Below are positions 1-58,046 of a stretch of 58,046 bases of DNA, in pieces. The DNA is from an uncultured virus (IMG/VR IMGVR_UViG_3300006754_000007) (lineage: Duplodnaviria > Heunggongvirae > Uroviricota > Caudoviricetes). The stretch is from IMG/VR virus record IMGVR_UViG_3300006754_000007, one strand, 5' to 3'. Under the pieces are notes generated by a model, which ran no database searches, had not been told where the DNA came from, and was given only the letters and a program-made list of their open reading frames with translations. Within the stretch, counting starts at the first letter, position 1. Every line of letters begins with the position of its first letter. The translations under genes and the position numbers were made by a program.

Positions 1-523
1 TCTTCTCACCTGGGCACTCGATGTTGGCGTACCCTTCGATTTCTTCACGGGGTTCGTTCCACCCGTCCCCGTCGTACCTGCCTGTGCCGAAGGTGATCTC
101 TTGTTCTTCGGTGTCCAGGGCGGCCCAGAGCCAGAACTCGAACTTGACGTTGCGGTCCAGGACAATCGCGTTGTTCTTGGAAACCCGGATCTTTTGCCCT
201 GCTTTCCCCGCCAGGGTGATGTAAGCGAGTGCCCCCTCCCAGCCTTCACGACCTTCTTCGATGTATTCATCGCAAACGTCGTCACAGCCCTCGACCCCTA
301 TGACCTTCCATCCCATCTGCTTCAAGGGGCCAATGACCTTCTTGGAAAACTTCAGGGCTGCCTTTCCCGCCTGGGTGGTGAAGTGGCTGTAGTCATCTGT
401 CTCGGCGCACTCGGGAAGATCGGGGCCATCCGGCTCGTAGTCATCACGAGGGTCGTAGTCATCTTCGTAGTAGCCCCCATCAGGGCCATACGCGCCAGCA
501 GTCTTTGGGTCGTTAGAGGGCAT
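1..523 (-). CDS. Hypothetical late protein, runs off the window edge (MPSNDPKTAGAYGPDGGYYEDD...)
   Basis: Translated by hand. ATG at 521-523, AGGAGA RBS, open frame to position 1, late-type motif at 548-562. Not in the ORF track. Confidence 0.8.
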   Translation of the reverse strand, partial: MPSNDPKTAGAYGPDGGYYEDDYDPRDDYEPDGPDLPECAETDDYSHFTTQAGKAALKFSKKVIGPLKQMGWKVIGVEGCDDVCDEYIEEGREGWEGALAYITLAGKAGQKIRVSKNNAIVLDRNVKFEFWLWAALDTEEQEITFGTGRYDGDGWNEPREEIEGYANIECPGEK

Positions 524-547
524 CAGTTCTCCTAAGGGTCAGCCCCT

Positions 548-562
548 ATAGAGAAACCACCC
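548..562 (-). promoter_or_regulatory. Putative late promoter GGGTGGTTTCTCTAT
   Basis: Variant of the recurrent CGGTAG-N5-YTAT 15-mer, about 25 nt upstream of an ATG. Confidence 0.5.
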
Positions 563-702
563 TACTTGTCGGAAGGCTTCCAACCGCACTTGTGGCAGCC
601 TTTGCCAAGGGTCTTGATAATGCAGTCGCCAGGGGTGAAGATGACCTCGTTCTTGATGGCCTTCTTCTTTCCACAGTTTTGGCAGTCGGTCTTGATAATC
701 AT
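562..702 (-). CDS. 46-aa zinc-ribbon protein
   Basis: MIIKTDCQNCGKKK...KGCHKCGWKPSDK has two CxxC pairs and follows the promoter motif at 737-766. Confidence 0.7.
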   Translation of the reverse strand: MIIKTDCQNCGKKKAIKNEVIFTPGDCIIKTLGKGCHKCGWKPSDK

Positions 703-736
703 CACATTTCCCGCTAAGAGGCGGCTCCTCCTTCCC

Positions 737-766
737 TTTACGAGTGAAATCGAGCTTCAGAACCCC
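737..766 (-). promoter_or_regulatory. Putative early promoter GGGGTT-N18-CGTAAA
   Basis: One mismatch to a motif found five other times with identical spacing. Confidence 0.6.
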
Positions 767-1310: not shown

Positions 1311-1909
1311 TCAGAAGCCCAGTCTCGGACCCTCTCTTCACGCATGTAGGTCGCTTCGTCCCAGCGTTTAGAGTCTACAAAGCGTGGCTGATCCATCAGC
1401 AGTGCGATTGTCACCTGTCCCGGAGTTGCGCGAGGCGTGCTTGACCCGGTGAACACCACTCGTCCTTGCTTATCGGTGATGGCAGCATCCCAGGTGGGGG
1501 TGCCTTTAGAGGTTGGGTCCTTTGTGAACTCTATCTTGAGGACCTCTCGTCCTTCCCAGGAAATCCACGGCGCTTGCGTCGATCCGGCGCTGACCTCGTC
1601 CTTTACAGTCGCCAGACCCGAGAACTGCGTAAGCATCCCGTAGTCAAAGTTATGCGTGAAGTCTGTGACTTTGACGTTGGCGTGGGGCACTTCTCCGTTG
1701 GCGTGGGCAAACCACCGCTTCAGCACCTGCTCTACCTTACGGAAGTCGAGCTTCCAGACTGTGTAGGCTTTCATGCCGGTGTAGCTCTGTTCCTCCACGG
1801 AGTACGGGGCCACCTTGTTGATGGTGTCCTGGAGGAGTTTCATGGTAGGCGCTGCTGCCCATTTGTAGGCAGTCGCTACACGAACAGGGGATGGTGTTGG
1901 TTGGGACAT
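1307..1909 (-). CDS. Hypothetical protein with an N-terminal RVA motif, putative virion cargo
   Basis: 200-aa ORF, AAGGA RBS, begins MSQPTPSPVRVATAY. Confidence 0.75.
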   Translation of the reverse strand: MSQPTPSPVRVATAYKWAAAPTMKLLQDTINKVAPYSVEEQSYTGMKAYTVWKLDFRKVEQVLKRWFAHANGEVPHANVKVTDFTHNFDYGMLTQFSGLATVKDEVSAGSTQAPWISWEGREVLKIEFTKDPTSKGTPTWDAAITDKQGRVVFTGSSTPRATPGQVTIALLMDQPRFVDSKRWDEATYMREERVRDWASD

Positions 1910-4472: not shown

Positions 4473-5996
4473 GACATAACGGTGAAGCTGCGTGTACTTT
4501 TGCTGTTGCCTGCGAGGTGACAGCTTGCGCCATTGATTCCGATAGTGTCGGAACAGTTCCCGGCTGCTCATGCCGGTCTCGCCGTCCATGTAGAAGTTCT
4601 CAGGAGCGTAGGAAGCCCAACCCTCAATCCAACGATTGAGTTCTCGGTCATCCATCGCACTGAAGACGCCTTCATCAAGGGAGGGCAGCTTTGTTGCGGA
4701 GAAAACGGCCTCGACGGTGAAAGGCAAACTTACCCTCCCCCATCGATCAATGCTCACTTCCCGGCCAAGTTCCATGTTTCCGATTGAGGCGTCCGTGACT
4801 TCGTATTCTTCGGCTTCCTGGTAGTCCTCGAAGAGCGACTCGAAGAACTGTTGGGGACGGCGCTTGATCCTGTCCTGGACTGCTTTTTGGAGGGCCGACT
4901 TCTCTGCTCGGACCTTCTTGGCGTATGCCTTCTTCAGGAGAGCCGCGCCCTCACGAGGGAACTGCTTCAGGAACTCCTTGAAGCCCATGCCTTCCAGGGT
5001 GATACCTCTGGAGAACACAATCTCACCTCGAACCTGAGCTTGCTGGCTCCCATCGGCAGCCATGTCCCCCAGCACCCGCTTCATCTTCAGGCCCTTTCGC
5101 CAACTGTAGTCGAGGTTCGGTGACTTCCGCTTGACATCCTCCATGACGAAAGCGAGAGCTTCCTCTGCACTCATGCCACTCAGATCAAGGCTCTTACCTT
5201 GGACGTGGCGTAGGGCTACACGAGAGGGCGATGCAGCGTATTGCCGCTCAGTGCGCTTCCCTTTGTGCTTATCTTTCCGGGTATGTCCACGTTCCACGTC
5301 ATATCCTCGTTCGTTGCGGCGATGGCCCCTGGTGGTGCTCCGTGCGCCTGCTGCTTCCGCAGCGGGGTTCTTACGCAAGCGGTCCACCTTCACCTTTACC
5401 GGAGCGTTCTTATCTTTCTTAGGTTGGACACGATGGGTTTTCCTCTTTGCCAGAAGAGCCGAAGCTACTCGTACCGCTGAAGCCATGACCTGTCTCCCGT
5501 CGGAGGTGATTTCTCGCTCTACCGCCATCGCCGGACGACGCACCAGATAGTCAGGCCACTTCTCGTACCACTTCCCGTAAAACTCTGATTTGGGCATCAC
5601 CCGCACAGTCTCATCAGGGTCGGGGATATTTGGATCTGCGACGTACACGTTCAGATCCTCATCCACGTCAAACACCACGCTTGCGTGGCTCCATTCACGG
5701 CCTTCGGGATTCCAGGCGATCATCACGGGGATGCCGCGATCCGTCCATTCCTTGATTTGCTGCACCGTGGCAGGGACGGTAAGAGTGGCCCTACAGCCGT
5801 AATGTTGAGCACAAGCAAGAGCCTGTTCCCAAGCAGCCCCCTTCATGGGGCGTGCGCCCATGACCTTGTTCACCTCATCTTCTGAGACATCGTGTCCAAC
5901 AGCTTGCAGACACATCATCATGGACGTAGCCATGCAAGTGTACTGGGTACGTTGTCGTACTGGAGTTACGGCTGCTTTTGCTTCTTTTGAGGGCAT
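4467..5996 (-). CDS. C39-like cysteine peptidase domain fused to basic and unknown domains
   Basis: QRTQYTCMATS (Gln/Cys), WSHASVV (His), VADPN (Asp), followed by two RVA linkers. Confidence 0.8.
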   Translation of the reverse strand: MPSKEAKAAVTPVRQRTQYTCMATSMMMCLQAVGHDVSEDEVNKVMGARPMKGAAWEQALACAQHYGCRATLTVPATVQQIKEWTDRGIPVMIAWNPEGREWSHASVVFDVDEDLNVYVADPNIPDPDETVRVMPKSEFYGKWYEKWPDYLVRRPAMAVEREITSDGRQVMASAVRVASALLAKRKTHRVQPKKDKNAPVKVKVDRLRKNPAAEAAGARSTTRGHRRNERGYDVERGHTRKDKHKGKRTERQYAASPSRVALRHVQGKSLDLSGMSAEEALAFVMEDVKRKSPNLDYSWRKGLKMKRVLGDMAADGSQQAQVRGEIVFSRGITLEGMGFKEFLKQFPREGAALLKKAYAKKVRAEKSALQKAVQDRIKRRPQQFFESLFEDYQEAEEYEVTDASIGNMELGREVSIDRWGRVSLPFTVEAVFSATKLPSLDEGVFSAMDDRELNRWIEGWASYAPENFYMDGETGMSSRELFRHYRNQWRKLSPRRQQQKYTQLHRYVR

Positions 5997-6037: not shown

Positions 6038-6052
6038 ATAGGGGGGATACCG
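6038..6052 (-). promoter_or_regulatory. Putative late promoter CGGTATCCCCCCTAT
   Basis: One mismatch to the 15-mer consensus. Confidence 0.55.
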
Positions 6053-6950: not shown

Positions 6951-7757
6951 TTACCGAAGGAGTTCAGACATCCACGCAGCCATGCGTTTTTCGTGGCCCT
7001 TGATTTCGAGGCGGTTGAGGGTGGAAAGCTCCTGGCCTCCTGGCTCCTTGGCGATTTCCACGGGCGTAAGCGGAGCCTTCTCGGTCTCCTTCAGGGCCTT
7101 TGCTTCAGAGATGTCCAGTTCCGGGGCTGCTTCTTCGGTGACGTCTTTGATGTTCGAGATGGCGTTGGAATCAGCAAACTCCAGGACCTCTCGGTGAGAA
7201 GGGTTGTCGAAGAAATGGCCCTCAGCCGTAGGAGCCACGTCGTCAGCCTTCGCCTGCTTCTCTCCTGGAACAGGAGAGACAGCCTGCTGAAGCAGATAGG
7301 TGTTCTCCTCGTGCTGGTTTGCAGTAGCCATGAGCCAGTCATCCAACCCCAGCGTCATAGTTCCGGCAACCTTGATTGCATCGTAGGCTTCCTGGACTAC
7401 CGCCTGAAGCTCAGCTTCTGAAGCAATCCCCCGTTTGTGGTGGGACGAGTAAGCGCCCCAACGAATGACACACCCAAGCATGTGCTTCATCTGCGGAAGC
7501 AGATCCACGGCCTCACCGCCCAAGTAGCCAACCAGCTTTTCAGCCAACTGGTCCACTTGGTCCTGGACACTCTTGTAGAGCCTCTCGAACAGCAGGTGGT
7601 TTCCGTAGAAGGTTCCGCTGACTACCTGCCAATGGCTTGTCTGGTAGGAGAGATACTGGGCACGCAAGACCGCAAGCACCAAGGTCAGGTGCTTGAGGGT
7701 GACCTCCTTCTGCATCGGAGTGGCGTCCAGAAACGCCTGTTTATCTTGCGTAGCCAT
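6951..7757 (-). CDS. Dps/ferritin-like protein with an acidic C-terminal extension
   Basis: HWQVVSGTFYGNHLLFERLY..VDQLAEK fits the Dps ferroxidase signature. Confidence 0.8.
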   Translation of the reverse strand: MATQDKQAFLDATPMQKEVTLKHLTLVLAVLRAQYLSYQTSHWQVVSGTFYGNHLLFERLYKSVQDQVDQLAEKLVGYLGGEAVDLLPQMKHMLGCVIRWGAYSSHHKRGIASEAELQAVVQEAYDAIKVAGTMTLGLDDWLMATANQHEENTYLLQQAVSPVPGEKQAKADDVAPTAEGHFFDNPSHREVLEFADSNAISNIKDVTEEAAPELDISEAKALKETEKAPLTPVEIAKEPGGQELSTLNRLEIKGHEKRMAAWMSELLR

Positions 7758-7766: not shown

Positions 7767-9281
7767 TTAGTAGACGCGAGGCGGTTTCGGCCAGCGGCCT
7801 CTTCCTTCGTGGACTTTCATGTGGAGTTTCTTGGCCTCTTTTTTCAGGGCCTTCATCGCCTCAGCGAGGGCTTCCGGCTCACCATAAACGGTGAACCCCA
7901 TCCAACCCCATTCGTCGTCGTCCGGCAGCGGAACCTTCACGGGGTTCCGGTCAGCAACGTCTACTTCCAACTTCTTGAGGGCGGCCTTCAGATAGGTCTC
8001 CCCAGACTGAATAACGCGGGAATCAATCCCTACAACGGCGACGACCATTTCCTCCTTGCCACGCATGTTGATGGCGACGTACTTGTCTACCTCCAAGGCG
8101 GTCTTGCTCAGCCCCGCGAGAATCGCACGGCGCTTCTCGTCCCCCTTGGGGAGGTCAGCAGCCATACGGATGAGCGTAGAACGGTCTGAAGCCACGTTGT
8201 CGATCACGAAGGCTTTCTTCTTTTCCCCATCCTTCTTCTCAGCCTTGGCCTTAGCCTTCTCAGCCTTCATCAGAGCCTTGTGCCGAACTGGGTCCAAGAA
8301 CTTCAGGTCGCCTGCGCCGGGGTCATCCAGGGTCCAGTCGGAATCCTCCCCCTTCATGATCTTGGCGGTGGCCGCCTGCATGACCGCGACCTCGCCCCAG
8401 AACTTCTTCGTAGCGTCGTTGAGGTCGGGCCGCTTCAAAGCGTCCTTGTAGAGTTTGGCCCTCTCCTCCGTTTTCTTGATGATCTCGTCCCGCATCTTCG
8501 GGGAAGCCTTGGCGACCTGCTGAAAGAGCTTACGGTTCTCCGAGCCAGACGACAAGTTTGACGGGTACTCCTCGAACCTCTTGAGGAGCTTGTCAGCGGA
8601 CTTGTTCGCCTTGGTCTCTTGCGGGGTGCTGCCCTCCAGACGAGCCTTCTCGGCCTCGGCCTTCGACTCCTTTTCGGCCTTGGCCTTGGCCTTGGCGTCA
8701 GCCTTGTCCGCTTTCTCCTTGGCTCGCTCCTCCTTGGACATGCCCTTTTGCCGAGCCTTTTCCTGGGTCTGAAGAGCCGCCTTGAAGTCCTTCAGGACAT
8801 CTTCGGCCTGATATAGCCTTTGAAGGAACTTCTCGGACGACTTGATGTTGTCATTCCAGTTTTCTGGGTTCTTCCTCGCCAAATAACGCATCTCCTCAAG
8901 CCTTTGCCGCGTCGAAGCAGTTTCCCGAGTGAGCGAACTGAGGGCTTTGCCGACAGCCTTGGCGGTGCCGGGGCCGATGCCGTTTTTCTTGATGTCAGCG
9001 AGAGCATCCTGAACAGCCTTGGTTGGACCCCTGCCGTCGATTCCGTTCAGCAAACTGGCGGGGCTGTCGTCCTTCTTTCCATCGCCCTTATCTCCACCCT
9101 TACTCACCGTGTGCTTGGACTTGTCAGCACCAGGGTGGTCTTTGAGATACTTCTTCAGGGCTTCGGGAGAGGCGTGCTCCATAGCCATCTTCAACCCAGT
9201 AAGGATGGCTCTACGCTTCTCGTCCCCTTTAGGAAGGTCGGCGGCCATACGAATAAGGCGGGTCTTGTCTGAAACTGTCAT
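7767..9281 (-). CDS. Lysine-rich modular protein, putative virion internal protein (possibly extends to 9485 through a TGA)
   Basis: AGGAGA RBS before MTVSDK; two copies of LIRMAADLPKGDEKRRAIL. Confidence 0.8.
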   Translation of the reverse strand: MTVSDKTRLIRMAADLPKGDEKRRAILTGLKMAMEHASPEALKKYLKDHPGADKSKHTVSKGGDKGDGKKDDSPASLLNGIDGRGPTKAVQDALADIKKNGIGPGTAKAVGKALSSLTRETASTRQRLEEMRYLARKNPENWNDNIKSSEKFLQRLYQAEDVLKDFKAALQTQEKARQKGMSKEERAKEKADKADAKAKAKAEKESKAEAEKARLEGSTPQETKANKSADKLLKRFEEYPSNLSSGSENRKLFQQVAKASPKMRDEIIKKTEERAKLYKDALKRPDLNDATKKFWGEVAVMQAATAKIMKGEDSDWTLDDPGAGDLKFLDPVRHKALMKAEKAKAKAEKKDGEKKKAFVIDNVASDRSTLIRMAADLPKGDEKRRAILAGLSKTALEVDKYVAINMRGKEEMVVAVVGIDSRVIQSGETYLKAALKKLEVDVADRNPVKVPLPDDDEWGWMGFTVYGEPEALAEAMKALKKEAKKLHMKVHEGRGRWPKPPRVY

Positions 9282-9537: not shown

Positions 9538-11244
9538 TCAGAATCTGCCGCCGTCGTCTTCCTCTGGCTTCTTGAAGTCGAGGCCGATGTTCTTGGCGAT
9601 GAGTTCCGCAGCATCAGAGTTCTCAGCCAGAGCACGGCCTACATCCCCGTAGATTCCGCGCATGGCCTCGTTGAAGGTCGGGTCGTTGACCGTGAAGAGG
9701 TCCCGCTGAATCTTCCGGCGTACATCCACCGGGTCCAAGTTGAGCAGTTCGAGGATGGTGTCCACGTCGAGGCTGCCCTTGGTGTAGAGGTTGTAAAGGG
9801 CATCGAAGGTGTCCCTGTTGTCCCGCAGGGCAAGCCGCGTGAACGACAGGCCAGGGATGATCACCTGCTCTTCCCCAAACTCATCCTCTTCCACGAAGCC
9901 CATGCGAGCGCACATTGGCTTGAAGAAGTGTTCTTGTACGAGGTCTTGGAGTTGCTCTCGAAGCAACATGTAGCGGGTGTTGATGACTTCCAGGTTGATC
10001 CGGTCACCGCTGTACTGGGACTCTCCTGAAAGCAGACCTTCGGTGACTCCCAGCCCCGCGTAAAGCTGGCGGTCGGTGAGGTCGTACTCGCTGCTGAGGT
10101 CCAGGAGCCGTTGGTCTGCCCCCATCTCATTCCACTCAACCGGGAAGTTAGCGATGATGGAGTAGTCCGGGTCTTGGAGCGCCATGTCCACCTGCTCACG
10201 CAAGGCTTCCACGTCCGAGATGTCCAAGTCCTCGCCACTAACGATGCGAATGGGCGTCATGTGCCGCGAGGCAATACTGGTTTGGGCCTGACGGAGCTTG
10301 TCTCTGTAAACCAGAGACCGCATACACCGCTCAAGGATGGAGCGCCCCCGCAGGTCATAGTCAGACTTCCGGTTCGCCATGTAGTAGATGAAGCTCCCGG
10401 CATCAGGGTCTGTGTTGAGGGGGATGTTGTCCCCTCCCGCTACAGCCAGAACGACATCAGGGGGCATCGACTTCACGATGCGAATCGCATCCTCGTCCCC
10501 TTGCCGGGACTTTTCGATGATGTCCTTGGTCTTCGAGTCTGGAATCAACTCGAAGATTCGCTCATCCGTGAAGTTGAAAGCCTCCATCTTGACTTGTTCA
10601 GGGGGCAACACCCGAAGAGAGGTCCAGCCTTTGTAGTTCTTCTGGAGCCATTCCACGGCGCGTTCAGAGGCGTTTTCACGCTCTTGCTCTTCTTCGACAA
10701 CCTCCCCATCCTCGGTGAGTTCCCGGTGCATCTCCTTACGCACTTCGTCGGGCATGTCAGGATTATCGTCCTCAACCCAGATGAAGACTTCACCGATGAG
10801 GTTTCTCTCATGGACAATGCCGATCAACCGTTGGAGCAGCCCGATCTTCTTGGCCCAGCGTTCACAGAACCGCGTGGCAGCTACAGCGAGGTCCCGATTC
10901 TTGGCCTGCGGGGTGGAAATCCGAATCTTCGAGAGCGGAAGTTCCGTATGGAGATCGATGGCCTGCCCAACGAAAGGCTCGTTTCGGTAGAAGAAACGGT
11001 AGTAGTTCCATTGTTCGTGGAGACTTTGGGGAAGCTCCAGGAAGTCGGTGCTGAGTTCAGGGGAGTAGAAGTTGCCGCCCACCCCCTCCATGGTGTCTGC
11101 ATGGCCCAGGCCCGTGGTCATGGAAGCAGTACGCATACGCATGGAGCCAGTGACTTTGCGAGGCTTGCCGGACTTGGCCTTTTTCTTCCCGTCGCCGTTT
11201 TTGACCTTCCCAACAGTAGGAGGCTGATCACCTTTCGTGGTCAT
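9538..11244 (-). CDS. Portal protein
   Basis: 568 aa near the terminase; segments FYRNEPFVGQAIDL, GEVFIW, RGRSILERC and IYA/LYAGLGV-type helices resemble portal proteins. Confidence 0.75.
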   Translation of the reverse strand: MTTKGDQPPTVGKVKNGDGKKKAKSGKPRKVTGSMRMRTASMTTGLGHADTMEGVGGNFYSPELSTDFLELPQSLHEQWNYYRFFYRNEPFVGQAIDLHTELPLSKIRISTPQAKNRDLAVAATRFCERWAKKIGLLQRLIGIVHERNLIGEVFIWVEDDNPDMPDEVRKEMHRELTEDGEVVEEEQERENASERAVEWLQKNYKGWTSLRVLPPEQVKMEAFNFTDERIFELIPDSKTKDIIEKSRQGDEDAIRIVKSMPPDVVLAVAGGDNIPLNTDPDAGSFIYYMANRKSDYDLRGRSILERCMRSLVYRDKLRQAQTSIASRHMTPIRIVSGEDLDISDVEALREQVDMALQDPDYSIIANFPVEWNEMGADQRLLDLSSEYDLTDRQLYAGLGVTEGLLSGESQYSGDRINLEVINTRYMLLREQLQDLVQEHFFKPMCARMGFVEEDEFGEEQVIIPGLSFTRLALRDNRDTFDALYNLYTKGSLDVDTILELLNLDPVDVRRKIQRDLFTVNDPTFNEAMRGIYGDVGRALAENSDAAELIAKNIGLDFKKPEEDDGGRF

Positions 11245-13117: not shown

Positions 13118-13147
13118 GGCGCTGATTCAGGAGCCTGAATCAGCGCC
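13118..13147. repeat. Perfect 14-bp inverted repeat at the terminase stop codon
   Basis: GGCGCTGATTCAGG-AG-CCTGAATCAGCGCC. Confidence 0.8.
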
Positions 13148-44674: not shown

Positions 44675-44681
44675 GGCCCTC

Positions 44682-48074: not shown

Positions 48075-49109
48075 ATGCGCCCTGACCCTGCACGCATCGC
48101 AAAAGCTCATGCCCGCAAGCAGCGGGTTGGTGCGTCTGTGTCTAAGACTGCTGGTGAAGTTCGCTTCATCAAGGACCGGGGTAACGACAAGAACGAGTGG
48201 GGTTGGGGAAGCCCAGGTCCGAGTGAGCGTGAAATCACCGCTGACTTCGTTTTTGACCCTCGCTACCTGAAGCCTCTTGCCCAGACGATGCGCTCTGCCC
48301 TCATGGGGTTGGGCCATGTTGCTTCAGCACAGGACAAGTTCCTGAAGCTCAAGAGCCGCCAAGTCAGCCCGGACGGGAACCTTGGCGGTAAAGGCTACAT
48401 CCAGAAGGTCTCTGAGATGCGGCGGCAGTTGATGAACTGCGCGGAAGCCCTCTCATCCTTCACCGATACTGTGTACGACGAGATGGCTGCCCCTCACTGG
48501 GACCCAGCCGAGGACACTCTTGACCCCCGCGACCGTGACGAGGTGCGGGAGATTGTCGAGGAGGTCGATGAGATCCGTGAAGATCCTGTGGCTTGGGCTG
48601 AAGAGGACCTCACACAAACCGGCAAGGTTGCTCGTCGCAAGACGGCTGCTTGGGCAGGCATCGACTACATGCGTGGAGATGACCGTTGGACGCTGGGCAA
48701 GGCCATCGAAAAGCGTCGTGTTCGAGTTCCTTCCGGCTACAAGCTGGTTTCGGAGCCTGGGAAGGTCGTGGTGTTCAACTGGGGAGTCCTGGAGGACGGG
48801 GCCACAGCAGAGTTTCGCTTTACGCCTAACGGCACTGACATCCGGTTCATTGTTGATGGCTACGGGGACAAGAGGTCACCGGGTCTGATTCGACACAAGT
48901 GGATCGGAGACCCTGCTGATGATGCGGTGACGCTTGAGAAGCTCATCAAGAAGTACATGCTCGCGCTGACGAAGGCAGTGGCAGAGGATGAGCTTGATCT
49001 TGCAACGCAGATTGAGCGTGCCCAGATGAGGGGTCAAGAGCGGCGTGACGACCGTCGGTACAGTTCAAGTCGAGTGGCGGCAAGGTTTATGGAGGTGAGC
49101 GGTGAGTAA
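48075..49109 (+). CDS. Modular virion-type protein
   Basis: AGGAGA RBS; KTA linkers; ends SSRVAARF. Confidence 0.78.
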   Translation: MRPDPARIAKAHARKQRVGASVSKTAGEVRFIKDRGNDKNEWGWGSPGPSEREITADFVFDPRYLKPLAQTMRSALMGLGHVASAQDKFLKLKSRQVSPDGNLGGKGYIQKVSEMRRQLMNCAEALSSFTDTVYDEMAAPHWDPAEDTLDPRDRDEVREIVEEVDEIREDPVAWAEEDLTQTGKVARRKTAAWAGIDYMRGDDRWTLGKAIEKRRVRVPSGYKLVSEPGKVVVFNWGVLEDGATAEFRFTPNGTDIRFIVDGYGDKRSPGLIRHKWIGDPADDAVTLEKLIKKYMLALTKAVAEDELDLATQIERAQMRGQERRDDRRYSSSRVAARFMEVSGE

Positions 49110-51267
49110 GGACAAACCCCTGGACATTCTTGGGGAGAGCCACCTTCCGGCTGACCTCTTTACCCCTACGTTGGGGTCGAACTATGGTCTCGATGGCTTC
49201 GAGGACATGCACTACAACAGCGGTGTCCTCGAAGGCGTGCTGAACCCTGAGCTTCTCCCTGGACCTGCCGTCCCTGACGGCTTCGAGGGAATCACAGCCA
49301 ATGATATGGGTATCGCGGAGTTCATGAAGGAAGCTGACTTGGCTGACCTGGACTGGCTTGCGGATGCGGAGCAGGACCCGGAGCGCCTTCCGCAGAACCC
49401 CGTGGACTTGGCTATCCCGGAGCTTGAGGAAGCCTGGGGCGTGGATCGTAGGACAAATGGCATCAAGGTGTTTTCGACGGACCTTTCCCATGCGAGAGCC
49501 TTGGAAGAGGCATCCCCCCTTAGGAAGAACGAGAGGGAGCTTTCGGAAATCTTGGTTTCGGCCATGCGTCGTTCGGCTGCGGGCGACGACATCGAGCAGA
49601 TCATCGGCCAGTCGCGTCTTGCTGCTGGCTTGGACTCTTCTCGCATTGAGAGGGGCTTGGACATCGTCCGTAGCGAGCACGGGCTTGCTGGGAATGTCTT
49701 TGTGCGTGCGGCTGCCTACCCGTCTTACGAGAAGGGCAAGTGGAAGAAGGAGGTCTTGAAGGCCGCCCGAAATGCGGAGTACATCCTTGTTTCAGAGCAG
49801 GACTTTGGATCTACGCACATTCAGAATGGCCGCTGTACCGTCACCGGTAAGAAAGCCGTCCTGGAAGTCCCGTGGAAGGATGCTTTGGCCCACTACGGAC
49901 CCCTGCTTGGGGCTGTGGGCCGCAAGGTTGCTTCTGATTTGCCGCCCCGTGATGCGTTGAGGGCTGCTTTTTCGGCTCCCGCTACGCAGCAGGTTGCGGG
50001 TGGTGAGCGTCTTCCTCATTACAAGGCCGTGTGTGACACGGTGACCTCCGAGGAAGCTCGCGTTGCATTGGCTTCCGCAGACACCACCCCCAAGGAAGTG
50101 CATATCTCCGAGGCAGGGCTGCAACAGAGGATCTCTTCGTGGAAGTCCTCGAACATGATCGATGGCGACGTGGCTGATGAGATTCTGGCTTCGGATCTCC
50201 CCCTGAATCAGAAGTTGGATCGGGCAGTTGCGGCGGTAACTGCAAAGGCCACGGCCAAGGCAGATTTTACGGGCGCTCCGAATACGGCTGCTGAAGCAGC
50301 CCAGGCCCGCCAGCACCTTCGGCTCGTTCGTAACGATTCTGGTCGTGAGGCTGCCGAGGCGAAGTTGGAGCAGATCACCGCCTTCCGAAACACCGAGGAG
50401 TTGGATCGTCGCGTGGCTCGGGTCATCGCGGAAATCGAGAAGGGAGCACGCGGCTCCTACCTCAAGTCCTTCATCACTCGCTTGATTCCACAGAAGTTTG
50501 CCGCCCAAGCAGTGCATCTTCTTCGCCCTACCCTGGAAAGAACAGGAGCACTGGAAGATTCCAAGACAGCAACTTCTTATGATGGGCATGTATACGAGCG
50601 AGCACCTGAAGTTCGAGCCGCTATCGAGCTTTCGGACATCGACATGGCCCTTGTGAAGGCAGCCTCTGATGGTGATTCCACAGTGGGAGAAATCAAGAGC
50701 GTCCTGAAGTGGGCTTCGAGGCACATGTCCGAGGGCAGCGCAGGCCAAGAACTGTCGGAGTTGCTTCAGCACCGGTTCTCGAACCGGATCCTGAAGGCCG
50801 CTTCAGGTCTGATTCAGGATCTTCGTGGCGCTCATGAAGGCGCTGCTGGGTTCTTGTATGTTGACGCGGATGCTTACATGGCCCCCCAAGGAATCTCAGG
50901 TTGTGAGACAGGAGCCTTGCGCCACCGCGCCAACCAGATTCCTGCGGTGTTGGCGAGCGCCAGATGTCAGGGTTGTACCCGTGTTTGCACATTGTCGTGC
51001 GGCACGCGGAAGTGTGGGACCTACAACAAGGTTCTCCTGGAGGGTTCGGATCTCCCCGAGAACATCCAGTCCATCAAGAAGGCCAACATCACCGGGGCAG
51101 ACCATACGGACGCGGAAGATATTGCTTCCATGTTCAACAGTACTACCTATGACCCGGACGAGTTCAGCCTTCGGAACGCAGACTTCGAGGAGCAGGTGGA
51201 GCTTGCCCCCCTCCCCGAAAACGAGAAGATTGGCGACATCGTTTTGGGTGGCTTCCTGTGGGAGTGA
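49102..51267 (+). CDS. Large hypothetical structural protein with an internal repeat and a Cys cluster
   Basis: 721 aa, GGAGG RBS, within the late operon. Confidence 0.78.
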   Translation: MSKDKPLDILGESHLPADLFTPTLGSNYGLDGFEDMHYNSGVLEGVLNPELLPGPAVPDGFEGITANDMGIAEFMKEADLADLDWLADAEQDPERLPQNPVDLAIPELEEAWGVDRRTNGIKVFSTDLSHARALEEASPLRKNERELSEILVSAMRRSAAGDDIEQIIGQSRLAAGLDSSRIERGLDIVRSEHGLAGNVFVRAAAYPSYEKGKWKKEVLKAARNAEYILVSEQDFGSTHIQNGRCTVTGKKAVLEVPWKDALAHYGPLLGAVGRKVASDLPPRDALRAAFSAPATQQVAGGERLPHYKAVCDTVTSEEARVALASADTTPKEVHISEAGLQQRISSWKSSNMIDGDVADEILASDLPLNQKLDRAVAAVTAKATAKADFTGAPNTAAEAAQARQHLRLVRNDSGREAAEAKLEQITAFRNTEELDRRVARVIAEIEKGARGSYLKSFITRLIPQKFAAQAVHLLRPTLERTGALEDSKTATSYDGHVYERAPEVRAAIELSDIDMALVKAASDGDSTVGEIKSVLKWASRHMSEGSAGQELSELLQHRFSNRILKAASGLIQDLRGAHEGAAGFLYVDADAYMAPQGISGCETGALRHRANQIPAVLASARCQGCTRVCTLSCGTRKCGTYNKVLLEGSDLPENIQSIKKANITGADHTDAEDIASMFNSTTYDPDEFSLRNADFEEQVELAPLPENEKIGDIVLGGFLWE

Positions 51268-51270
51268 TCC

Positions 51271-54200
51271 GTGGAGTCTCGTTGCCTCAGTATTGAAGCA
51301 GTAGCACTGCGGAAGCAGGCTGAGATGTCCCATGCGGCATCCATTGCTTTGATGAAATGGCTCTCGGAGACCACCCAGCGCATGGGTGTTGCTCGCCATG
51401 TTTATGTTGTAGGCGGGGCTGTCCGAAACTTCTTGATCGACAAGCCCATCAAAGACATCGACATGGTGGTGGACTCGCTTGCGCTCAAGGGCGGCAAGGA
51501 TGCCGCCTGGGTTGCAGATGGCATTGCTCGCGCTGTGCCTACTCGAACTAATGTCATCTCTGACAGCTTGGGGGTTTCCAAGGTGTTCATCGAAGGCCCG
51601 TGGGAGCTTGATGGTCATCAACTGGAAGGGGAGGTCATCGAGATCGTCAACGCCCGCGAGGAGGTTTACGAGGTCGATCCTGAGACAGGGGATTATGTGG
51701 GGCACAAGCCCATTGAGGTGAATCCGACATCATTGGAGATCGATGTCACGAGGCGGGAGTTCACGTTCAACACGCTGATGTGGCGTCTTCTTGATGTGGC
51801 GAAGGGTCCTGACAAGGCAGAGATCATCGACTTGACTGGCTGTGGGTTGAAGGACCTGGAAAGCCGTGAGATGAGGTGCCCCCAGGACCCGGACAAGACC
51901 TTCAAGCAAGACCCGACAAGGATTATCCGTACTATCAAGTTCGCCTTCAAGTACGGCTTCAAGCTCCCTCCTGACGTGAAGGCTGCCGCGAAGCGTCAAG
52001 CCAAGGGCCTAAAGCGCATTGTCTCCAAGACTCAATCTGTTCTTCAGGTCGTTGTCTTGGATAGTCCCCAATACAAGAAGGCCCTGAAGGTAATGGATGA
52101 CTTGGGGGTGATAGATGTCCTCAAGGAGATGATGCAGGAGAACAGGTCATTCGCCTCTTTCCTTGCTGGGCAGGTTGGCAAGAAGGGAGTGGCCTACATG
52201 TTCGACCTGATGGATGTCGGACTTCCGGTTGGCTCCCCCATCTCGTTTTTGAGCGCGAAGCAGCAACGTCGCTTTCGGGAAATCACCACTCCAATGGAAC
52301 GTGATGACGCCCAAGCGTTTTTGGACATGCTTCGGCAGCCTGGGCAGGGGTATAAAGACCCCTCCTTCGTCAACAATCTTGCTGAACAACATGGCTATGC
52401 CCGACGGGAGATGAAGGACTTCATGCCTGTTGTAGACGGGCTGGCAAGAGAGCTTCTCCTGGAAAACCCTGCTTTGGGGGATTCCCCTGCTGCACTTCGA
52501 CGGCTTGTAGAGCAGCAGCTTCCTCGACGGCTTCCCCGAAGAACCGCCAGCACGGCACTGTCTTACGGCTCCCCTTCCGAAGAGGACCTGCTGAAAATGC
52601 AGGCCCCAACTCCCATATTTCCCATGGGGTTGGAGGACTTCGACTTGGAGCCTCCCCCTGGCGCGGAGGAGACCCTTGAAGAACTACAAGCATTACGGCA
52701 AGTCGCTGCGGAGGAGCGCCCGGAAGCTGAAGCGTTCGTGCGCGAGTCTGACGGCGAGATTCTCCCTCTCTTTGCTGATTTGTGGAACCGTTTTGGTGTC
52801 CGAGTTGATCAGGGATGGGCGCGAGAGATGGTCAGGCAAGCAAGGACCCATATCTTACGGTTGAAGTGGCACTTCAACCGTGCCCGCCCTCACCAAGTAG
52901 GGGAGGCAATCGGGCAGTCTTTTGTGCCCATGGATTCGCAGACGGCTCACACACCGGCTTACCCCAGTGGACATGCCATCCAAGCGTACCTCTTGGGTGA
53001 GGCTTCGAGCCGCCTGGACCCGGAGCATACAGACGAGTACTTCGACTTGGTGGGCCGCATCCTTTGGGGTCGCGTCCAGGCGGGGTACCACTGGCCCAGT
53101 GACATCTCCTATGGGGTGGAGATCGCTCAAGACATGGCTGAAGCCATGGAGCTTCCTCCCCAGTTCAGCCCTCGCGTAGCTCGAATCATGGAGCGTCGTG
53201 CTCATCACATGCGTCAACAGGTGCGTTGGGCGAAGACCTACACGGTCAATAAGGGCGACTCGGTCTGGTACGGCAAGTACAAGAACCAGCGCGGGGTTGT
53301 CCAAAGTTTCGGCATGAGTGACAAGGGCGACCCGACCATCACCGTCGAGCAACTTCCGGCTCCTTCGGCAAGGAAGCCGAAGAAGAAGTCCCCAAAGGAG
53401 TTGAACCTTTTCAAGATCCGGCCCCGCAAGGAGGACGGTAAAGATGAGGATCAGGAGAAGAAGGCTGCCCGCCGCGTTGTTGCGAAGTTCAGGGCCAAGA
53501 AGAAGGTCCCGAAAACCGATGGTTCAGGAACCACCACCATTTATGAGTACGGCCCCCGGCAAGTTGCCCAACGACACAAGGACAAGGCCAAGCGCCTCAA
53601 GGCGTTGAAGTCCTCGCTGTCTGCTTTGAGGTCCAAGGTTTCTGGGGACATGGCTTCCAAGGACCCGGAAACCAGACTGACGGCGTTGGCAGTGGCTCTT
53701 CTCGACAAGACCTACGAACGTGTGGGGAACGAGAAGTCTGCGGGTGAGCGCGGCCACCACGGCATCACCACCCTTTGTGTGGAGCACCTGACCCTGAAAG
53801 GGAAGAAAGCTACCTTCACATATGTGGGTAAGAGCGGAGTGAAGCAGAAGAAGGTGGTGGATGACCCCCAGATTATTCAGGTGCTGAAGCACGCCGTTGA
53901 AGGCAAAAGCCCCAGCGAGAGAATCCTGTGCGATGGCGACGACTGTCTGATTCGAGCGCGGCACGTCAACAGCTACCTGAAGCCTTTCGACATCACTGCG
54001 AAGGACCTTCGAGGATTGCACGCCAACGAGGAGATGCGGGTCCACCTTCAGGACATCCGTAAGAAGGGGGAGAACCTTCCTCACCCTCGCAAAGAGCGGG
54101 ACAAGATCCTAAAGGCTGAGTTCAAGGACGCGCTGGCACTTGTGGCTGTGGCGGTAGGCCATCAGGCTTCCACTCTTAGGTCCCAGTACCTCGTACCGGG

Positions 54201-56397
54201 CCTTGAGAAAGCCTACATGAAGGATGGGACTGTCATCGAGGACCTCGCAAAGCAAGCTGCACTGGAGCGTGATGCAGGTCTTCGGCAGTGGCTCATGGGC
54301 TTGCTGGGGAAATCCACTATCGTCAAAGCAATCTTTGATTGGGGCGAGCAGCGTGTAGACGGCCCTTCGGACTTCCCGAGGGGGATGGTTCCCGAGGGCT
54401 ACATTTGGCAGATAGGCGACAGTTGGTATTCCACTCTTGGAGAGGGGTTCCGCGTTCGGAAGTACCGGTACGAGAAGGATGCGGTTCGAGGAATCCGGTT
54501 TGCCCGTGTGGCTTTTCTGCTTCAGGCCAAGCAGGCAACGAAGTCCACTGGCGAACAGGAGGACGAAGAAGCCAAACGTCTTGTTCGCAACTCTCCTAAG
54601 AAGAGGCCACCCCGCGTTGATTTAGAGCGCAGGCGTGTTTTGGACGAGGACATCGAGCAAGATCCCGACCAGGACCAGGAGAAGAAGGACACCTCCCACA
54701 ACTTCAAGGACATCGCGGCTGCGATGGCCGCCCGCCGCGTAGCTTTCCGCTATCGCCAAGCGGAGGAGTTCACGGAACAGGAGTGGAAGACCTACAAGGA
54801 GAAGCATCCCGGAGCCAGCAAGGACGACCACGAGATCCGCTCCGTTGGAGGAGAGGGGGATGAAGAAGAAGCCAAGGACACCTGGGCAGAGCTTTCCGAC
54901 GACGAGAAGATGGAGGCCATCGAAGAGGGGGCCAAGGACGAGTTCGCCAAGATCAAGGAGGAGTTCCCCGACGCGACCCTCACCGAAAATGAGGTGACGG
55001 ACATGTTCTTGGAGCAGGGGGCGAACGACCAAGATCCCTTCAGTCCTGCTTCAGTGAAAGAGCGACGTGACAAGGTCCTTGGAGAGGCTGAGATGGACTC
55101 AGCCACCAACAACCTCGTTCTCTTGACTCAATCCTTTGGGGGGAAAGAGTCTAAGAAGGTTGAAGAGGCTCTTTCGGGTTTGGAGGGCGATGACCGGGCT
55201 ACGTTCTTGGACTCCTACCAAAAGGTTCAGGAAGCCTCGAAGAACCGGGACTCTGAAACTCGTAAGAACCCGAAAGCTCGTAAAGAGTTGCTGGACCTCA
55301 TCGAAAATCTCGATGAGGTCATGGAAGCCCTCGCTTCCGCGAATCCTCAGACTATTGGCGAAGTCCTCGCTTTGTTCGAGTACGCCACCAAGGTTCTTTT
55401 CAACCCGGCACTTCTTGACCCGTCAAATCCGGTATCTGAAGAAGGGGCTGCGGTTTCTGGGGAGGCCCTGACCAAAGCACGGGAGAGAAGCGGTGTCCAT
55501 GCTGCCACCGCCTTTGATCGCTACAAGGAAGCCACCCCGGAGGAACGAGCACACGCCAAGGAAGCCTTGGCGATGCAGATGGAGGACCTTCCTGAGGATT
55601 CTCCTAAGAGCATCGAGCTTCAGGGTGTCATTTCCGGCCTTCTGGCTGCATCTGCCGTTCATGACGGCGAAGAAGCAACGGGCGTTGGGCCAACGATGCA
55701 GCTTTTGGTCAAAGCCCTTGATGCGGCAGGAGAGGTGGGTGTTGGGGGAGCTTTGTTCGCCCCTGTTGGGCAGGACATGTCCACCCCGGAAGTGCGGGAC
55801 AACATTCGGAATGCCCTTTCGGGGGTCTTGGACTCTGATTGGGAGAGCCTTGTCGATAAAGACGACCCGATTTACCCCATCGCAGAGTTGTTGTCTGATG
55901 ATGATGCGGGGTTGGGCATGGAAGATCGACAGTTCTTGAGGACCGTCATCGCGGATTACCTGACCGATGAAATCACGGTTGTTGAAGAAAAGAGCCGTGG
56001 GGACCACACCAAAGAAGAGCCGACCAGCGGAGACGTGAAGAAGGACCTCAAGGAGCGCCGTAAGAAGGACAAGTCTCGAATCAATAGCGCCCTTTCAGAG
56101 GCTAAGGCCGGATTGGATCAGGCTCTCATTGACGAGGCAGAGGGTAAAGGTGAAGGCAAGGGTGAAGGCAAGGGTGAAGGCAGCGTAGGCGAGCCTCAGT
56201 CTGCTGCTAAGAAGGGTTTCTTCTCGGCATTGCTGGATATTCTCTTCCCCGGCTCCATCCCGAAGAAATGGCAGGATGTTCTGGATGAGGACGCTTCCCC
56301 TTCCACAGATAAGAAGGCTTTTGCTCACTATGATTTGAATCCGTGGGACACTTCCAAACTTCCAGCGGGACGTCATGTCCCGCTGGATGCGCGGTAG
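51271..56397 (+). CDS. 1708-aa polyprotein: CCA/poly(A)-polymerase-family nucleotidyltransferase, PAP2 phosphatase, SH3-like domain, DNA topoisomerase IB, acidic helical region
   Basis: VGGAVRN..DID, RREFTFN, QDPTRIIR; KWHFNRARP, YPSGH, RVQAGYHWPSD; RVGNE, GKSG, AKDLR, GH..LRSQY. Confidence 0.88.
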   Translation: MESRCLSIEAVALRKQAEMSHAASIALMKWLSETTQRMGVARHVYVVGGAVRNFLIDKPIKDIDMVVDSLALKGGKDAAWVADGIARAVPTRTNVISDSLGVSKVFIEGPWELDGHQLEGEVIEIVNAREEVYEVDPETGDYVGHKPIEVNPTSLEIDVTRREFTFNTLMWRLLDVAKGPDKAEIIDLTGCGLKDLESREMRCPQDPDKTFKQDPTRIIRTIKFAFKYGFKLPPDVKAAAKRQAKGLKRIVSKTQSVLQVVVLDSPQYKKALKVMDDLGVIDVLKEMMQENRSFASFLAGQVGKKGVAYMFDLMDVGLPVGSPISFLSAKQQRRFREITTPMERDDAQAFLDMLRQPGQGYKDPSFVNNLAEQHGYARREMKDFMPVVDGLARELLLENPALGDSPAALRRLVEQQLPRRLPRRTASTALSYGSPSEEDLLKMQAPTPIFPMGLEDFDLEPPPGAEETLEELQALRQVAAEERPEAEAFVRESDGEILPLFADLWNRFGVRVDQGWAREMVRQARTHILRLKWHFNRARPHQVGEAIGQSFVPMDSQTAHTPAYPSGHAIQAYLLGEASSRLDPEHTDEYFDLVGRILWGRVQAGYHWPSDISYGVEIAQDMAEAMELPPQFSPRVARIMERRAHHMRQQVRWAKTYTVNKGDSVWYGKYKNQRGVVQSFGMSDKGDPTITVEQLPAPSARKPKKKSPKELNLFKIRPRKEDGKDEDQEKKAARRVVAKFRAKKKVPKTDGSGTTTIYEYGPRQVAQRHKDKAKRLKALKSSLSALRSKVSGDMASKDPETRLTALAVALLDKTYERVGNEKSAGERGHHGITTLCVEHLTLKGKKATFTYVGKSGVKQKKVVDDPQIIQVLKHAVEGKSPSERILCDGDDCLIRARHVNSYLKPFDITAKDLRGLHANEEMRVHLQDIRKKGENLPHPRKERDKILKAEFKDALALVAVAVGHQASTLRSQYLVPGLEKAYMKDGTVIEDLAKQAALERDAGLRQWLMGLLGKSTIVKAIFDWGEQRVDGPSDFPRGMVPEGYIWQIGDSWYSTLGEGFRVRKYRYEKDAVRGIRFARVAFLLQAKQATKSTGEQEDEEAKRLVRNSPKKRPPRVDLERRRVLDEDIEQDPDQDQEKKDTSHNFKDIAAAMAARRVAFRYRQAEEFTEQEWKTYKEKHPGASKDDHEIRSVGGEGDEEEAKDTWAELSDDEKMEAIEEGAKDEFAKIKEEFPDATLTENEVTDMFLEQGANDQDPFSPASVKERRDKVLGEAEMDSATNNLVLLTQSFGGKESKKVEEALSGLEGDDRATFLDSYQKVQEASKNRDSETRKNPKARKELLDLIENLDEVMEALASANPQTIGEVLALFEYATKVLFNPALLDPSNPVSEEGAAVSGEALTKARERSGVHAATAFDRYKEATPEERAHAKEALAMQMEDLPEDSPKSIELQGVISGLLAASAVHDGEEATGVGPTMQLLVKALDAAGEVGVGGALFAPVGQDMSTPEVRDNIRNALSGVLDSDWESLVDKDDPIYPIAELLSDDDAGLGMEDRQFLRTVIADYLTDEITVVEEKSRGDHTKEEPTSGDVKKDLKERRKKDKSRINSALSEAKAGLDQALIDEAEGKGEGKGEGKGEGSVGEPQSAAKKGFFSALLDILFPGSIPKKWQDVLDEDASPSTDKKAFAHYDLNPWDTSKLPAGRHVPLDAR
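56149..56182 (+). repeat. 12-bp tandem repeat encoding GEGK
   Basis: GGTGAAGGCAAG, about 2.8 copies. Confidence 0.85.
56361..56387. repeat. 11-bp inverted repeat just upstream of a late promoter motif
   Basis: TCCAGCGGGAC-GTCAT-GTCCCGCTGGA. Confidence 0.75.
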
Positions 56398-56406
56398 GGT
56401 TCCTAT
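56392..56406 (+). promoter_or_regulatory. Putative late promoter CGGTAGGGTTCCTAT
   Basis: Consensus match. Confidence 0.6.
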
Positions 56407-56480
56407 ACACCAACCCTATGAGCGAGACTTGCACTCGCTGGAATCCCTGTCCCGACAGGAACCCCTTTTGGAGAGTCACC

Positions 56481-57539
56481 ATGGCCGACAATCTTACCCG
56501 GCACGGGGCACGGACCCTTACCGAGTCCCTTGACCGTATTGCAACCGCCGTTCAGCACAATGCTGCTGTTCTGGGACTTCCCGGCAATATCGCCCAGGAC
56601 TTCGCCTATCGGTGTGACCTGATTAGCGATGCAGTTGAGAAGACTGCGGCCTCCAACTTTCCCTCCAAGGAAGCGGATTTCGATGCGGCTTCGATTGGGG
56701 CTGAGGTTCCGGGACCCTTGGTTGATGAGCCACCGGACCCCCAGATTGATGACCACTTCACTCAGGACAAGTTCCATGAGCTTGGGGACATGGAGGAAGC
56801 CGCAGAGAAGCTCGCCTCTCTGATGGTGGAGGCTGACCATGTGCTGGAAGCAGTGATGCCGACTGTCCAGGTGAAGGGCTTTGCTGGCTTCACCAATCAG
56901 ATTCGTCGTTTGGATGAGCTATCCAACGAGATTGAGTTGCTGGAGCGGGAGCTTGAAGCAGCCACTCAGGGCTTGCTTTCACGCAAGAAGGATCTCGACA
57001 AGGAAATGAAGAAGGCCGTCCAGGAACTCAAGGACGACTACAAGGAGAACCTTTCAGCACAGGGCAATGTCGTCATTGAGCGCAAAACTGCTTTGGTGGA
57101 CGCCCTGGCTCGATTGGCGGTGGTTGCTCGTAAGCGGACCCCCCAGATGGTTCGGGAAGAGATGCTGGCGGTTCTGGCTAACGAATATGGCGCAAGCATC
57201 ATGGACCGTATCCCGGAACTTGAATCCGCTCTCCGTGAGGAGAGGAAGACCCTTACGGTGTCCTTCAAGGGCTTTGAGTTGATGGCTCATGCGCCTTCCC
57301 CAACAGCTTCCGTGAAGCAGGCTGGGATTTTGGACAAGATTGTCCGTTTCCGCGAATGGCTCCTTGGAGGTCTTCGCCGCATCCTGGCTCTGGGCACCCA
57401 AGCCACCCGCCTTTTCAAGGGTGTGGGCCAGAAGATGGATCGGGATACCAAAACCTTCTTGAAGGAGCTTGGTGCCTACGAGAAGGAAATGGCGAAGGCG
57501 GCCACACAAGAGCATGGCTTTGACTTTTTCGCTGAGTAG
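56481..57539 (+). CDS. Coiled-coil modular head or scaffold-like protein
   Basis: GGAGA RBS; KTA/KEA/KQA linkers; IGAEVPGP..FTQ motif. Confidence 0.75.
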   Translation: MADNLTRHGARTLTESLDRIATAVQHNAAVLGLPGNIAQDFAYRCDLISDAVEKTAASNFPSKEADFDAASIGAEVPGPLVDEPPDPQIDDHFTQDKFHELGDMEEAAEKLASLMVEADHVLEAVMPTVQVKGFAGFTNQIRRLDELSNEIELLERELEAATQGLLSRKKDLDKEMKKAVQELKDDYKENLSAQGNVVIERKTALVDALARLAVVARKRTPQMVREEMLAVLANEYGASIMDRIPELESALREERKTLTVSFKGFELMAHAPSPTASVKQAGILDKIVRFREWLLGGLRRILALGTQATRLFKGVGQKMDRDTKTFLKELGAYEKEMAKAATQEHGFDFFAE

Positions 57540-57550
57540 CTGGAGAGGCC

Positions 57551-58046
57551 GTGTCCAAAACTGCTGTCAACAATGTCAACTGGTAACAGAGAGCCACCGA
57601 GTTCTCTGTAGGTGATCTCGTGGGCCTTTTTGGAGCCTATGAGTCCCAGTCAGGCCGCGTAACAGCAGTCTGGCCTGCTATCGGCATGGTTGATGTCGAG
57701 ATGGCAGTCGGGAACAAGCGGTTTCCAGCCGAAGAGCTTCAGCGGTACGACAATGAAACGGGAAATGTGGTCCCACCCCAAACGGATTCAGCCGCAGTGT
57801 CCCCCACTGTTTCAGTTCCCGGAGGCCCTTACAAGGAAGCCTCTGTGCAGCGGGTTGCCGAAGCTGCTGTGCGTAGAGCCTTGTACTGGGCTTCCAAGGA
57901 TCGTCAATACCGGCTTACGGGTGCCGAGTCAGGCGGGGGTCCGATTGGCTGTCCTAAATGTAAGGACGGGACGTTGAAGAAGGCCATCTACAAGAGGCGC
58001 GACGGTGCAAGCGAGCGTCTCATGGGTTGCCCCGGTTGTCTGTTCC
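57551..58046 (+). CDS. Partial late protein (SH3-like plus zinc ribbon) interrupted by an in-frame TAA at codon 12
   Basis: GGAGAGG RBS, then MSKTAVNNVNW*QRATEFSVGD..GRVTAVWPAIGMVDVE..VQRVA..CPKC..CPGC; open to the window end. Confidence 0.7.

Follow-up and report, generated by a model that had tools for sequence, protein, structure and literature searches.

The window analysed here is a stretch of 58,046 nucleotides from an uncultured tailed virus (IMG/VR record IMGVR_UViG_3300006754_000007), a 57% GC piece of a large tailed phage genome. Besides the terminase, the portal and a replication block it holds two runs of unannotated genes. We describe two kinds of feature in its late proteins: the triplet K-x-A (lysine, any residue, alanine), a putative cleavage site of the head protease, and two basic tags, one of 10 residues around RVA and one a 30-residue hairpin, which may direct unrelated proteins into the head. 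The nearest records by portal are the uncultured LR745208.1 (65%, 485 kb), Tunturiibacter phage Tunturi_5 (36%) and Bacillus phage G gp14 (30%). At its right end the window is 99.9-100% identical to loci L087-L089, which extend past it and encode there a 473-residue protease, a 424-residue acidic scaffold-like protein, a decoration-like protein and a 290-residue capsid protein. The protease gene adjoins the scaffold and capsid genes, and in Tunturi_5 and Rhodococcus phage E3 its homologues carry the annotation prohead protease. The 99%-identical G002 orthologue of the capsid protein matches phage G gp27 (6WKK, E 2.6e-66). Capsid protein and portal are of the phage G types, and together with the protease they are homologous to those of phage G and Tunturi_5.

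A preliminary description of the window had proposed one grammar for the late proteins, in which short leaders end in [K/R]-x-A, the same triplets mark domain boundaries and a basic RVA helix recurs near them. All eight leaders and all nine RVA-type peptides it listed are present in the translations of the respective genes. For the statistics, the open reading frames (ORFs) were divided by position and annotation into 24 of the morphogenesis block (9437 residues) and 31 others (8268 residues). This split was chosen after the claim was known, and 24 patterns were tried, with 500 shuffles of whole proteins and of 30-residue windows as the null. K[TQE]A is found 33 times in the morphogenesis block against 10.6 expected (z 7) and 5 times in the other ORFs against 6.0, and the RVA triplet 15 times against 4.4 and 7 times against 5.3, respectively. 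Within the first 30 residues, [KR][TQEKV]A occurs in 12 of the 24 morphogenesis proteins (2.6 expected) and in 4 of the 31 others (3.0 expected). Enrichment over composition in the late proteins is thus seen for RVA and for lysine-led triplets, and not for R[TQE]A, which is flat (14 vs 11.3). The full [KR][TQEKV]A of the preliminary description is mildly raised in the other ORFs too (41 vs 27.9, p 0.01).

An excess of this kind might be a by-product of lysine- and alanine-rich helical or histone-like sequence, the tags having spread by duplication without function. The proteins are rich in both residues, [KR]-x-[LIV] is raised as well (z 3.6) and kept as often in homologues (0.51, with higher flank identity), and many individual K-x-A sites are not conserved. 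We nevertheless regard this explanation as very improbable, since the excess survives the 30-residue local shuffles and the mirror and spacing controls (A-x-[KR], [KR]A, [KR]xxA and [DE]xA) are flat. Furthermore, in homologue alignments of the late set, K-x-A is conserved at 0.54 (63 sites) vs 0.30 for [DE]xA (122 sites) at equal flank identity, the values for the other set being 0.38 (24 sites) and 0.46 (100 sites), and the K-x-A signal is also seen in the 30%-GC phage G and in Tunturi_5.

The protease was not recognised in Pfam or PDB sequence searches. An earlier model based on 12 sequences (predicted local distance difference test, pLDDT, 51) gave no Foldseek match and weak VIA matches; it was superseded by a model of the core based on 120 sequences with a pLDDT of 88. 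The latter matches T4 gp21 in Foldseek (E 2.6e-3). In VIA it matches the varicella-zoster virus (VZV) protease with Z 11.1 (root-mean-square deviation 2.4, 112 aligned), T4 gp21 with Z 10.2 (2.7, 126 aligned) and the human cytomegalovirus protease with Z 8.3, and the next unrelated structure scores Z 6.9. According to this model the protease has the assemblin beta-barrel fold and is of the SH-clan (assemblin / T4 gp21) type. A His and a Ser-Met-Gly, the candidate catalytic residues, are invariant in the 120 sequences. Four of the 120 homologues returned have long inserts and were dropped; among the remaining 116, a [KR]xA precedes the core in 115 and follows it in 115. Head proteases with long inserts are those at L103:8001-10874 and P0234, P0247, P0257 and P0260, the four P proteins having intein-type Pfam accessions. 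In the scaffold-like protein, the sites K76, K377 and K400 are kept in 8/8 homologues, and K400 adjoins a conserved C-terminal peptide.

Different protein sets were compared by counting K[TQEVKAIL]A against shuffled sequence. The phage's own protease and scaffold (14 vs 4.4) and the head core of G003 (35 vs 12.8) are enriched, and the tail proteins of G003 (3 vs 4.2) and Tunturi_5 (10 vs 7.3) are not; the DNA-metabolism proteins of G003 give 29 vs 22.2. The head sets of phage G (38 vs 12.4) and Tunturi_5 (54 vs 19.9) are raised, but serve as illustrations because they were chosen after the sequences had been seen. In head-module homologues bare K-x-A is in excess (740 vs 452), and in head-module proteins Ser directly after it is raised 2.4-fold.

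N-terminal sequencing is available for the capsid protein of phage G, for which 282 residues and a mature form of 255 residues and 28.2 kDa are given (PMC5646251, Table 1). These lengths place the cut after Ala27, and the computed mass of 28.17 kDa fits. At the aligned position the window phage, Tunturi_5 and LR745208.1 all have K-L-A followed by A (K24-L-A26-A27 in the window phage), with K24, A26 and A27 invariant in 13/13 relatives. Phage G itself has an RVA two residues ahead of this cut. A proteomics study of phage G particles (PMC12484599) lists many replication proteins too and is inconsistent on gp19, and was therefore unusable as a test.

Taken together, the protease fold, the sites flanking its core and the scaffold C-terminal peptide, the lack of enrichment in tail proteins and the capsid cut of phage G make K-x-A a well supported head-protease site with Ala at P1, the residue before the cut. 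Cleavage after Ala in the window phage itself is, on this comparative evidence, likely. Herpesvirus assemblin, of which the VZV protease is the top match, shares the fold, and its sites, with Ala at P1 and Ser/Thr next, resemble the putative site of the window phage; of its R and M sites one releases the protease core and the other, M, precedes the scaffold C-terminal peptide, the same layout as at K400 (PMC4498786). The window phage differs by a basic residue at P3 and by having protease and scaffold in separate genes. We know of no cargo tags in the herpesvirus assemblin system.

The RVA motif was studied in a set of 1288 non-redundant proteins, drawn from the window, from 40 other loci and from five contigs whose genes were called tile by tile. 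A seed pattern from the window examples gave 68 matches vs 0-2 in 20 shuffles, and the refined model S-[AP]-x-R-V-A-x-[RA]-[YFW]-[AL] gave 118 matches in 83 proteins vs 0-3. The matches are N-terminal in 34 cases (9 expected), C-terminal in 16 (7.8 expected) and internal in 68. A held-out model, for which G003 and G004 alone served as training genomes, places 8 sites in the late set of the window (shuffle mean 0.2) and none in the other set. Domains were found in 26 of 78 tagged proteins scanned with Pfam, and burial within folds, which the preliminary description had named as a point against its motifs, was not seen for this tag: 0 of 41 copies lie inside a Pfam domain vs 10.2 expected, though the homologues counted are not independent. 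In its sequence behaviour the RVA element is distinct from K-x-A: it has the properties of a portable tag, 10 residues long, carried by late proteins that are otherwise unrelated. As one motif, seven of the nine peptides listed earlier hold together with scores of at least 15; of the other two, VQRVAEAA scores 12.3 and is borderline, and VARVAAY, at -5.1, falls outside the motif. One match (17.3), possibly a false positive, lies in a 2013-residue protein of a tail-like block (L060:12779-18817).

A second tag, missed by the preliminary description, is a 30-residue hairpin with the consensus LIRLASxLPxGSxERRAIL. It occurs 30 times vs 0-1 in shuffles, and its profile matches 1772 protein clusters at 50% identity. 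Sequence searches of Pfam and the PDB assign it to no family, and among 50,697 phage records nothing matches it. For the flanks, 144 of the best 150 proteins were used, 6 close to the training set being dropped; [KR]xA follows 107 of 175 scorable copies, with peaks 13, 16 and 17 residues past the Pro, a count that is partly selected because the profile spans these columns. RVA and hairpin occur together in one of the 144 proteins. One and the same module is preceded by different tags: the hairpin in G003, an RVA tag in G005 and, in the window, a hairpin variant. From sequence, this suggests that the two tags are interchangeable. Complex prediction of the capsid protein with the hairpin gave a score of 0.00 in two runs and is no evidence either way. 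The hairpin was also considered as a mimic of the capsid-protein propeptide, an idea dropped after profile comparison gave a probability under 1%. It brings to mind the coat-binding helix-turn-helix of the P22 scaffold.

The explanation that we favour has two layers. K-x-A, often followed by S or A, would be recognised by the head protease of assemblin/gp21 fold, which would cut after the Ala; its substrates would be the protease itself, the scaffold, internal head proteins and the propeptide of the capsid protein. The two portable basic helical tags would dock late proteins that are otherwise unrelated into the prohead as it assembles. Cuts by the protease at nearby K-x-A sites would detach the tag and separate the modules of polyproteins, and the freed enzymes would enter the host along with the DNA. 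We think this explanation as a whole fairly probable. Packaging by the tags is probable, and injection of the freed cargo is slightly favoured. The Ala-specific analogue of T4 proposed earlier thus keeps its protease site, and the steps of cutting, packaging and injection stand with the likelihoods just given. A wider form is held tentatively and is rather doubtful: a cargo code independent of position, in which either tag, whether terminal or placed between two modules, brings dozens of unrelated proteins and multi-enzyme polyproteins into the head, and an Ala-specific herpesvirus-like protease separates the enzymes (RNA repair, topoisomerase, ADP-ribosyltransferases) for injection.

The tags could instead be extended or clustered cleavage cassettes with no part in targeting, K-x-A being the protease site as before. 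Two [KR]xA frames, RVA and R-[YF]-A, lie within the RVA tag, often with a third just upstream, R-L-A-S lies within the hairpin, RVA is close to the phage G cut as described above, and in T4 the targeting and cutting residues lie within the same ten residues (PMC9026906). Against this, the residues flanking RVA on either side are conserved, and spaced as in a helix, equally in N-terminal, internal and C-terminal copies. In addition, 16 tags lie no more than 20 residues from the C-terminus, and cutting by itself would release little there. The length of the hairpin also far exceeds that of any protease site in the literature read, and it recurs in all the clusters counted above. We therefore consider the cassette explanation unlikely.

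Domains in tagged proteins are topoisomerase IB, CCA/poly(A)-type transferase, PAP2, 2H, HAD, InPase, ART-PolyVal, NUDIX, WLM, GNAT and C39, the majority of the proteins having no known domain; with the tags masked, 107 tagged proteins fall into 47 families. The 1708-residue protein of the window combines a CCA/poly(A)-type nucleotidyltransferase, a PAP2 phosphatase, a topoisomerase IB core (residues 767-968) and unknown modules. In tagged proteins the triplets KTA and KQA exceed expectation about two- to 2.6-fold. A site is present at 109 of the 355 starts of homology boundaries (59 expected) and at 103 of the 341 ends (58 expected), with no excess of [DE]xA. Away from the tags K-x-A is slightly avoided (0.84, z -1.9; 0.86, z -2.9; untagged proteins 1.00); as this is slight and R-x-A behaves in the opposite way, the avoidance was not used as support.

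It is also conceivable that the tags are basic helices binding DNA or another late structure (viral factory, capsid exterior), and that their carriers act late in the cell without being injected. Both tags are Arg-rich, some tagged proteins have ParB-like or fusellovirus VP2-like DNA-binding domains, and RNA-repair and topoisomerase domains could work late in the cell. The tags are however flanked by the head-protease-type motif above chance, and they are frequent in head-module genes beside portal and protease, whereas replication proteins do not have them; we give this alternative a low probability.

By analogy, the two-layer system would work like T4 capsid targeting and gp21, in which a short peptide on unrelated late proteins (IPI-III, Alt) is taken off by an SH-clan head protease at a three-residue motif, the scaffold is cut many times and an ADP-ribosyltransferase is among the cargo (PMC9026906). 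It would lie outside that system by Glu specificity and head type: the motif ends in Ala, not Glu as in L/I-x-E (Glu-ending motifs were not scored separately), and the head, judged by capsid protein and portal, is of the phage G type and not of the T4 type with gp23, gp22 and gp20. The window phage has moreover two tags, also C-terminal and internal, several per polyprotein, and dozens of carrier families. The proteases phiKZ gp175 (S/A-x-E) and SPN3US gp245 (A-x-E) likewise cut many head and ejection proteins at short motifs with redundant sites, but with Glu at P1 and long protein-specific propeptides, no shared portable tag being described in the available parts of these sources (PMC9026906, PMC10052503). 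Polyvalent proteins, chains with InPase, ART, 2H, GNAT and peptidase domains (the ART-PolyVal class included), have been proposed as packaged in the virion and injected (Iyer et al. 2017, PMC5512222). Their trait of several unrelated effector domains per chain in variable architecture is present here, and no MuF domain was found in Pfam scans of the window and the tagged proteins. The defined tags and the candidate cut motif in the linkers of the window phage are not described in the parts of PMC5512222 available to us. Among the literature matches listed there is no description of a K-x-A rule or of either tag.

Several results weigh against the two-layer explanation. Chance accounts for about a third to a half of the window triplets, several are poorly kept (KEA1419 of gene 51271 in 1/7 homologues, KTA488 of gene 49102 in 0/8), K[TQE]A is also raised in the DNA-metabolism proteins of G003 (13 vs 6.8), and bare K-x-A is not enriched across the 107 tagged proteins (339 vs 337). 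Only about 30% of the homology boundaries carry a site, and the boundaries of untagged proteins show a weaker excess as well (22/282 vs 11.7). Counting only [KR]xA triplets beyond the tag itself, there is one downstream of 17 of the 34 N-terminal RVA tags (null 16%) and of 17 of the 68 internal ones; upstream there is one at 23 of the 68 internal tags and at 6 of the 16 C-terminal ones (null 9.5%). The link between tag and site is thus above chance yet far from complete, only a third to a half of the tags being flanked. Some homologues of the 1708-residue polyprotein have no tag above score 11, while several of its pieces start with one. The phage G site itself reads A-L-A then Q, with Ala in place of Lys at P3; PMC5646251 prints length and mass for this capsid protein and not the sequence read, and the 6WKK chain, with 280 residues, includes the N-terminal stretch presumed cut. 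Phage G and Tunturi_5 share homologous head genes and the K-x-A excess, but no RVA or hairpin tag was found in the 40 kb of phage G and 50 kb of Tunturi_5 scored, nor an RVA tag in the examined regions of ET08, and the tag layer is thus clade-limited.

If the two-layer explanation holds, a sequence tag would predict virion-carried genes among the unknown ones of uncultured jumbo phages, a class in which counter-defence proteins are expected. Under the wider form, the hairpin by itself would point to about 1800 unknown protein clusters as anti-host or counter-defence factors that are injected. Phage-G-type heads would gain a cleavage rule, after Ala as in herpesviruses, for which the cultured phage G and Tunturi_5 are relevant. 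Tags that function at a terminus or inside a protein would broaden the T4 model of how proteins are loaded into capsids.

The coordinates of the individual features are collected in the table.

Table. Tags, K-x-A sites and other features of the window, with scores from the RVA model and conservation in homologues where available.
Feature	Position	Strand	Remarks
RVA tag, N-terminal	1862..1891	-	gene 1307-1909; score 22.5; 18.7 with model from two other genomes
RVA tag just past C39-peptidase region	5451..5480	-	gene 4467-5996; score 17.6; PF13529 residues 10-123
RVA tag, second, internal	5202..5231	-	gene 4467-5996; score 24.0
Weak RVA-type tag near N-terminus	43959..43988	+	gene 43923-44237; score 15.6, 11.7 held out
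RVA-type tag (RIA), N-terminal	48084..48113	+	gene 48075-49109; score 16.0; kept 6/8 homologues
RVA tag, C-terminal	49062..49091	+	gene 48075-49109; score 24.9
RVA-type tag (RVV) just ahead of topoisomerase IB domain	53464..53493	+	1708-aa protein; score 16.7
RVA tag, internal, then RQA	54727..54756	+	1708-aa protein; score 22.0
Borderline RVA tag	57842..57871	+	gene 57551; score 12.3; R-x-A kept 12/13 homologues
Hairpin tag, first copy	9186..9278	-	gene 7767-9350
Hairpin tag, second copy	8103..8195	-	gene 7767-9350; KTA after it (8097-8105)
Hairpin-tag variant	17089..17181	-	gene 16336-18153; then two KTA sites and module tagged (hairpin/RVA) in relatives
N-terminal hairpin-tag variant starting with RVA	44679..44771	+	gene 44679-45410
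Leader KTA	497..505	-	gene ending 523; VKA in sole homologue found
Leader KEA	5979..5987	-	C39-peptidase gene; kept 3/3 scored; KTA, KSA or RTA in six listed homologues
Leader KQA	7734..7742	-	ferritin/Dps-like gene 6951-7757 (weak Pfam Ferritin match); kept 4/5
Leader RTA	11538..11546	-	gene 11241-11564; lost in sole homologue covering position
Leader KEA	18058..18066	-	gene 16336-18153; KEA and KAA in two homologues
KTA site, tag-to-conserved-domain junction	48144..48152	+	gene 48075; kept 8/8 homologues
Leader KQA	51313..51321	+	1708-aa protein; kept 4/7; full RVA tag just upstream in relatives
Leader KTA	57557..57565	+	gene 57551; kept 6/10
721-aa K-x-A-rich head-region protein	49102..51267	+	KAA 50656-50664 kept 8/8 homologues, 22% flank identity
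1708-aa multi-enzyme protein, candidate cargo polyprotein	51271..56397	+	Pfam; modules split/reshuffled in relatives
Portal protein	9538..11244	-	PHROG 16240; 30% to phage G gp14; N-terminal RTA-S 11125-11133, kept 8/11
Terminase large subunit	13140..15047	-	context; no tag, no K/R-[TQEV]-A site
Replication block, bacterial-type	21256-43861		gene content given below
Late-promoter-like motif GG[TA]-N4-9-YYTAT	6038..6051	-	further copies in the next two rows
Late-promoter-like motif, other copies	548-561, 12164-12177, 18256-18270	-	pattern match
Late-promoter-like motif, other copies	43866-43879, 48032-48045	+	pattern match

The motif GG[TA]-N4-9-YYTAT, presumably a late promoter, lies upstream of 6 of the 24 morphogenesis-block genes vs none of the 31 other window genes. 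Among unit-leading genes it stands before 28 of the 56 that are tagged and 80 of the 538 that are not; for this count, the motif was first spotted in the window, four patterns were tried, and G001 and G002 overlap. The replication block encodes a clamp, three clamp-loader subunits, RecA, RecD2, SbcCD-like pieces and a primase, together with NusG-like and sigma-like genes and a class II ribonucleotide reductase. In gene 57551, a T at 57584 of the window gives an in-frame TAA at codon 12; two 99.9% identical assemblies have C there and encode an intact protein of 188 residues, the T being either a private variant or an assembly error.

Among the 150 hairpin-tagged proteins, a fusellovirus VP2 domain (PF25632) is present in five (P0008, P0036, P0046, P0084 and P0109), and P0030 has an ADP-ribosyltransferase domain. 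By eye, the 1362-residue multi-domain protein gp321 of Tunturi_5 (L106:2790-6878) has KAA and KTA at apparent module joints, and gp9, 12, 13, 17, 20 and 53 of phage G (L020:9524-18253, 35181-36314) have an N-terminal basic leader R-L-[IKV]-[KS], which may be that phage's own tag. In the window, genes 4533 and 56343 share an acidic, proline-rich cassette that starts right after a K/R-x-A (3826-3834, 56667-56675). A short KxHP cassette shared by genes 9350 and 51271 likewise starts directly after such a triplet (54754-54762 in 51271).

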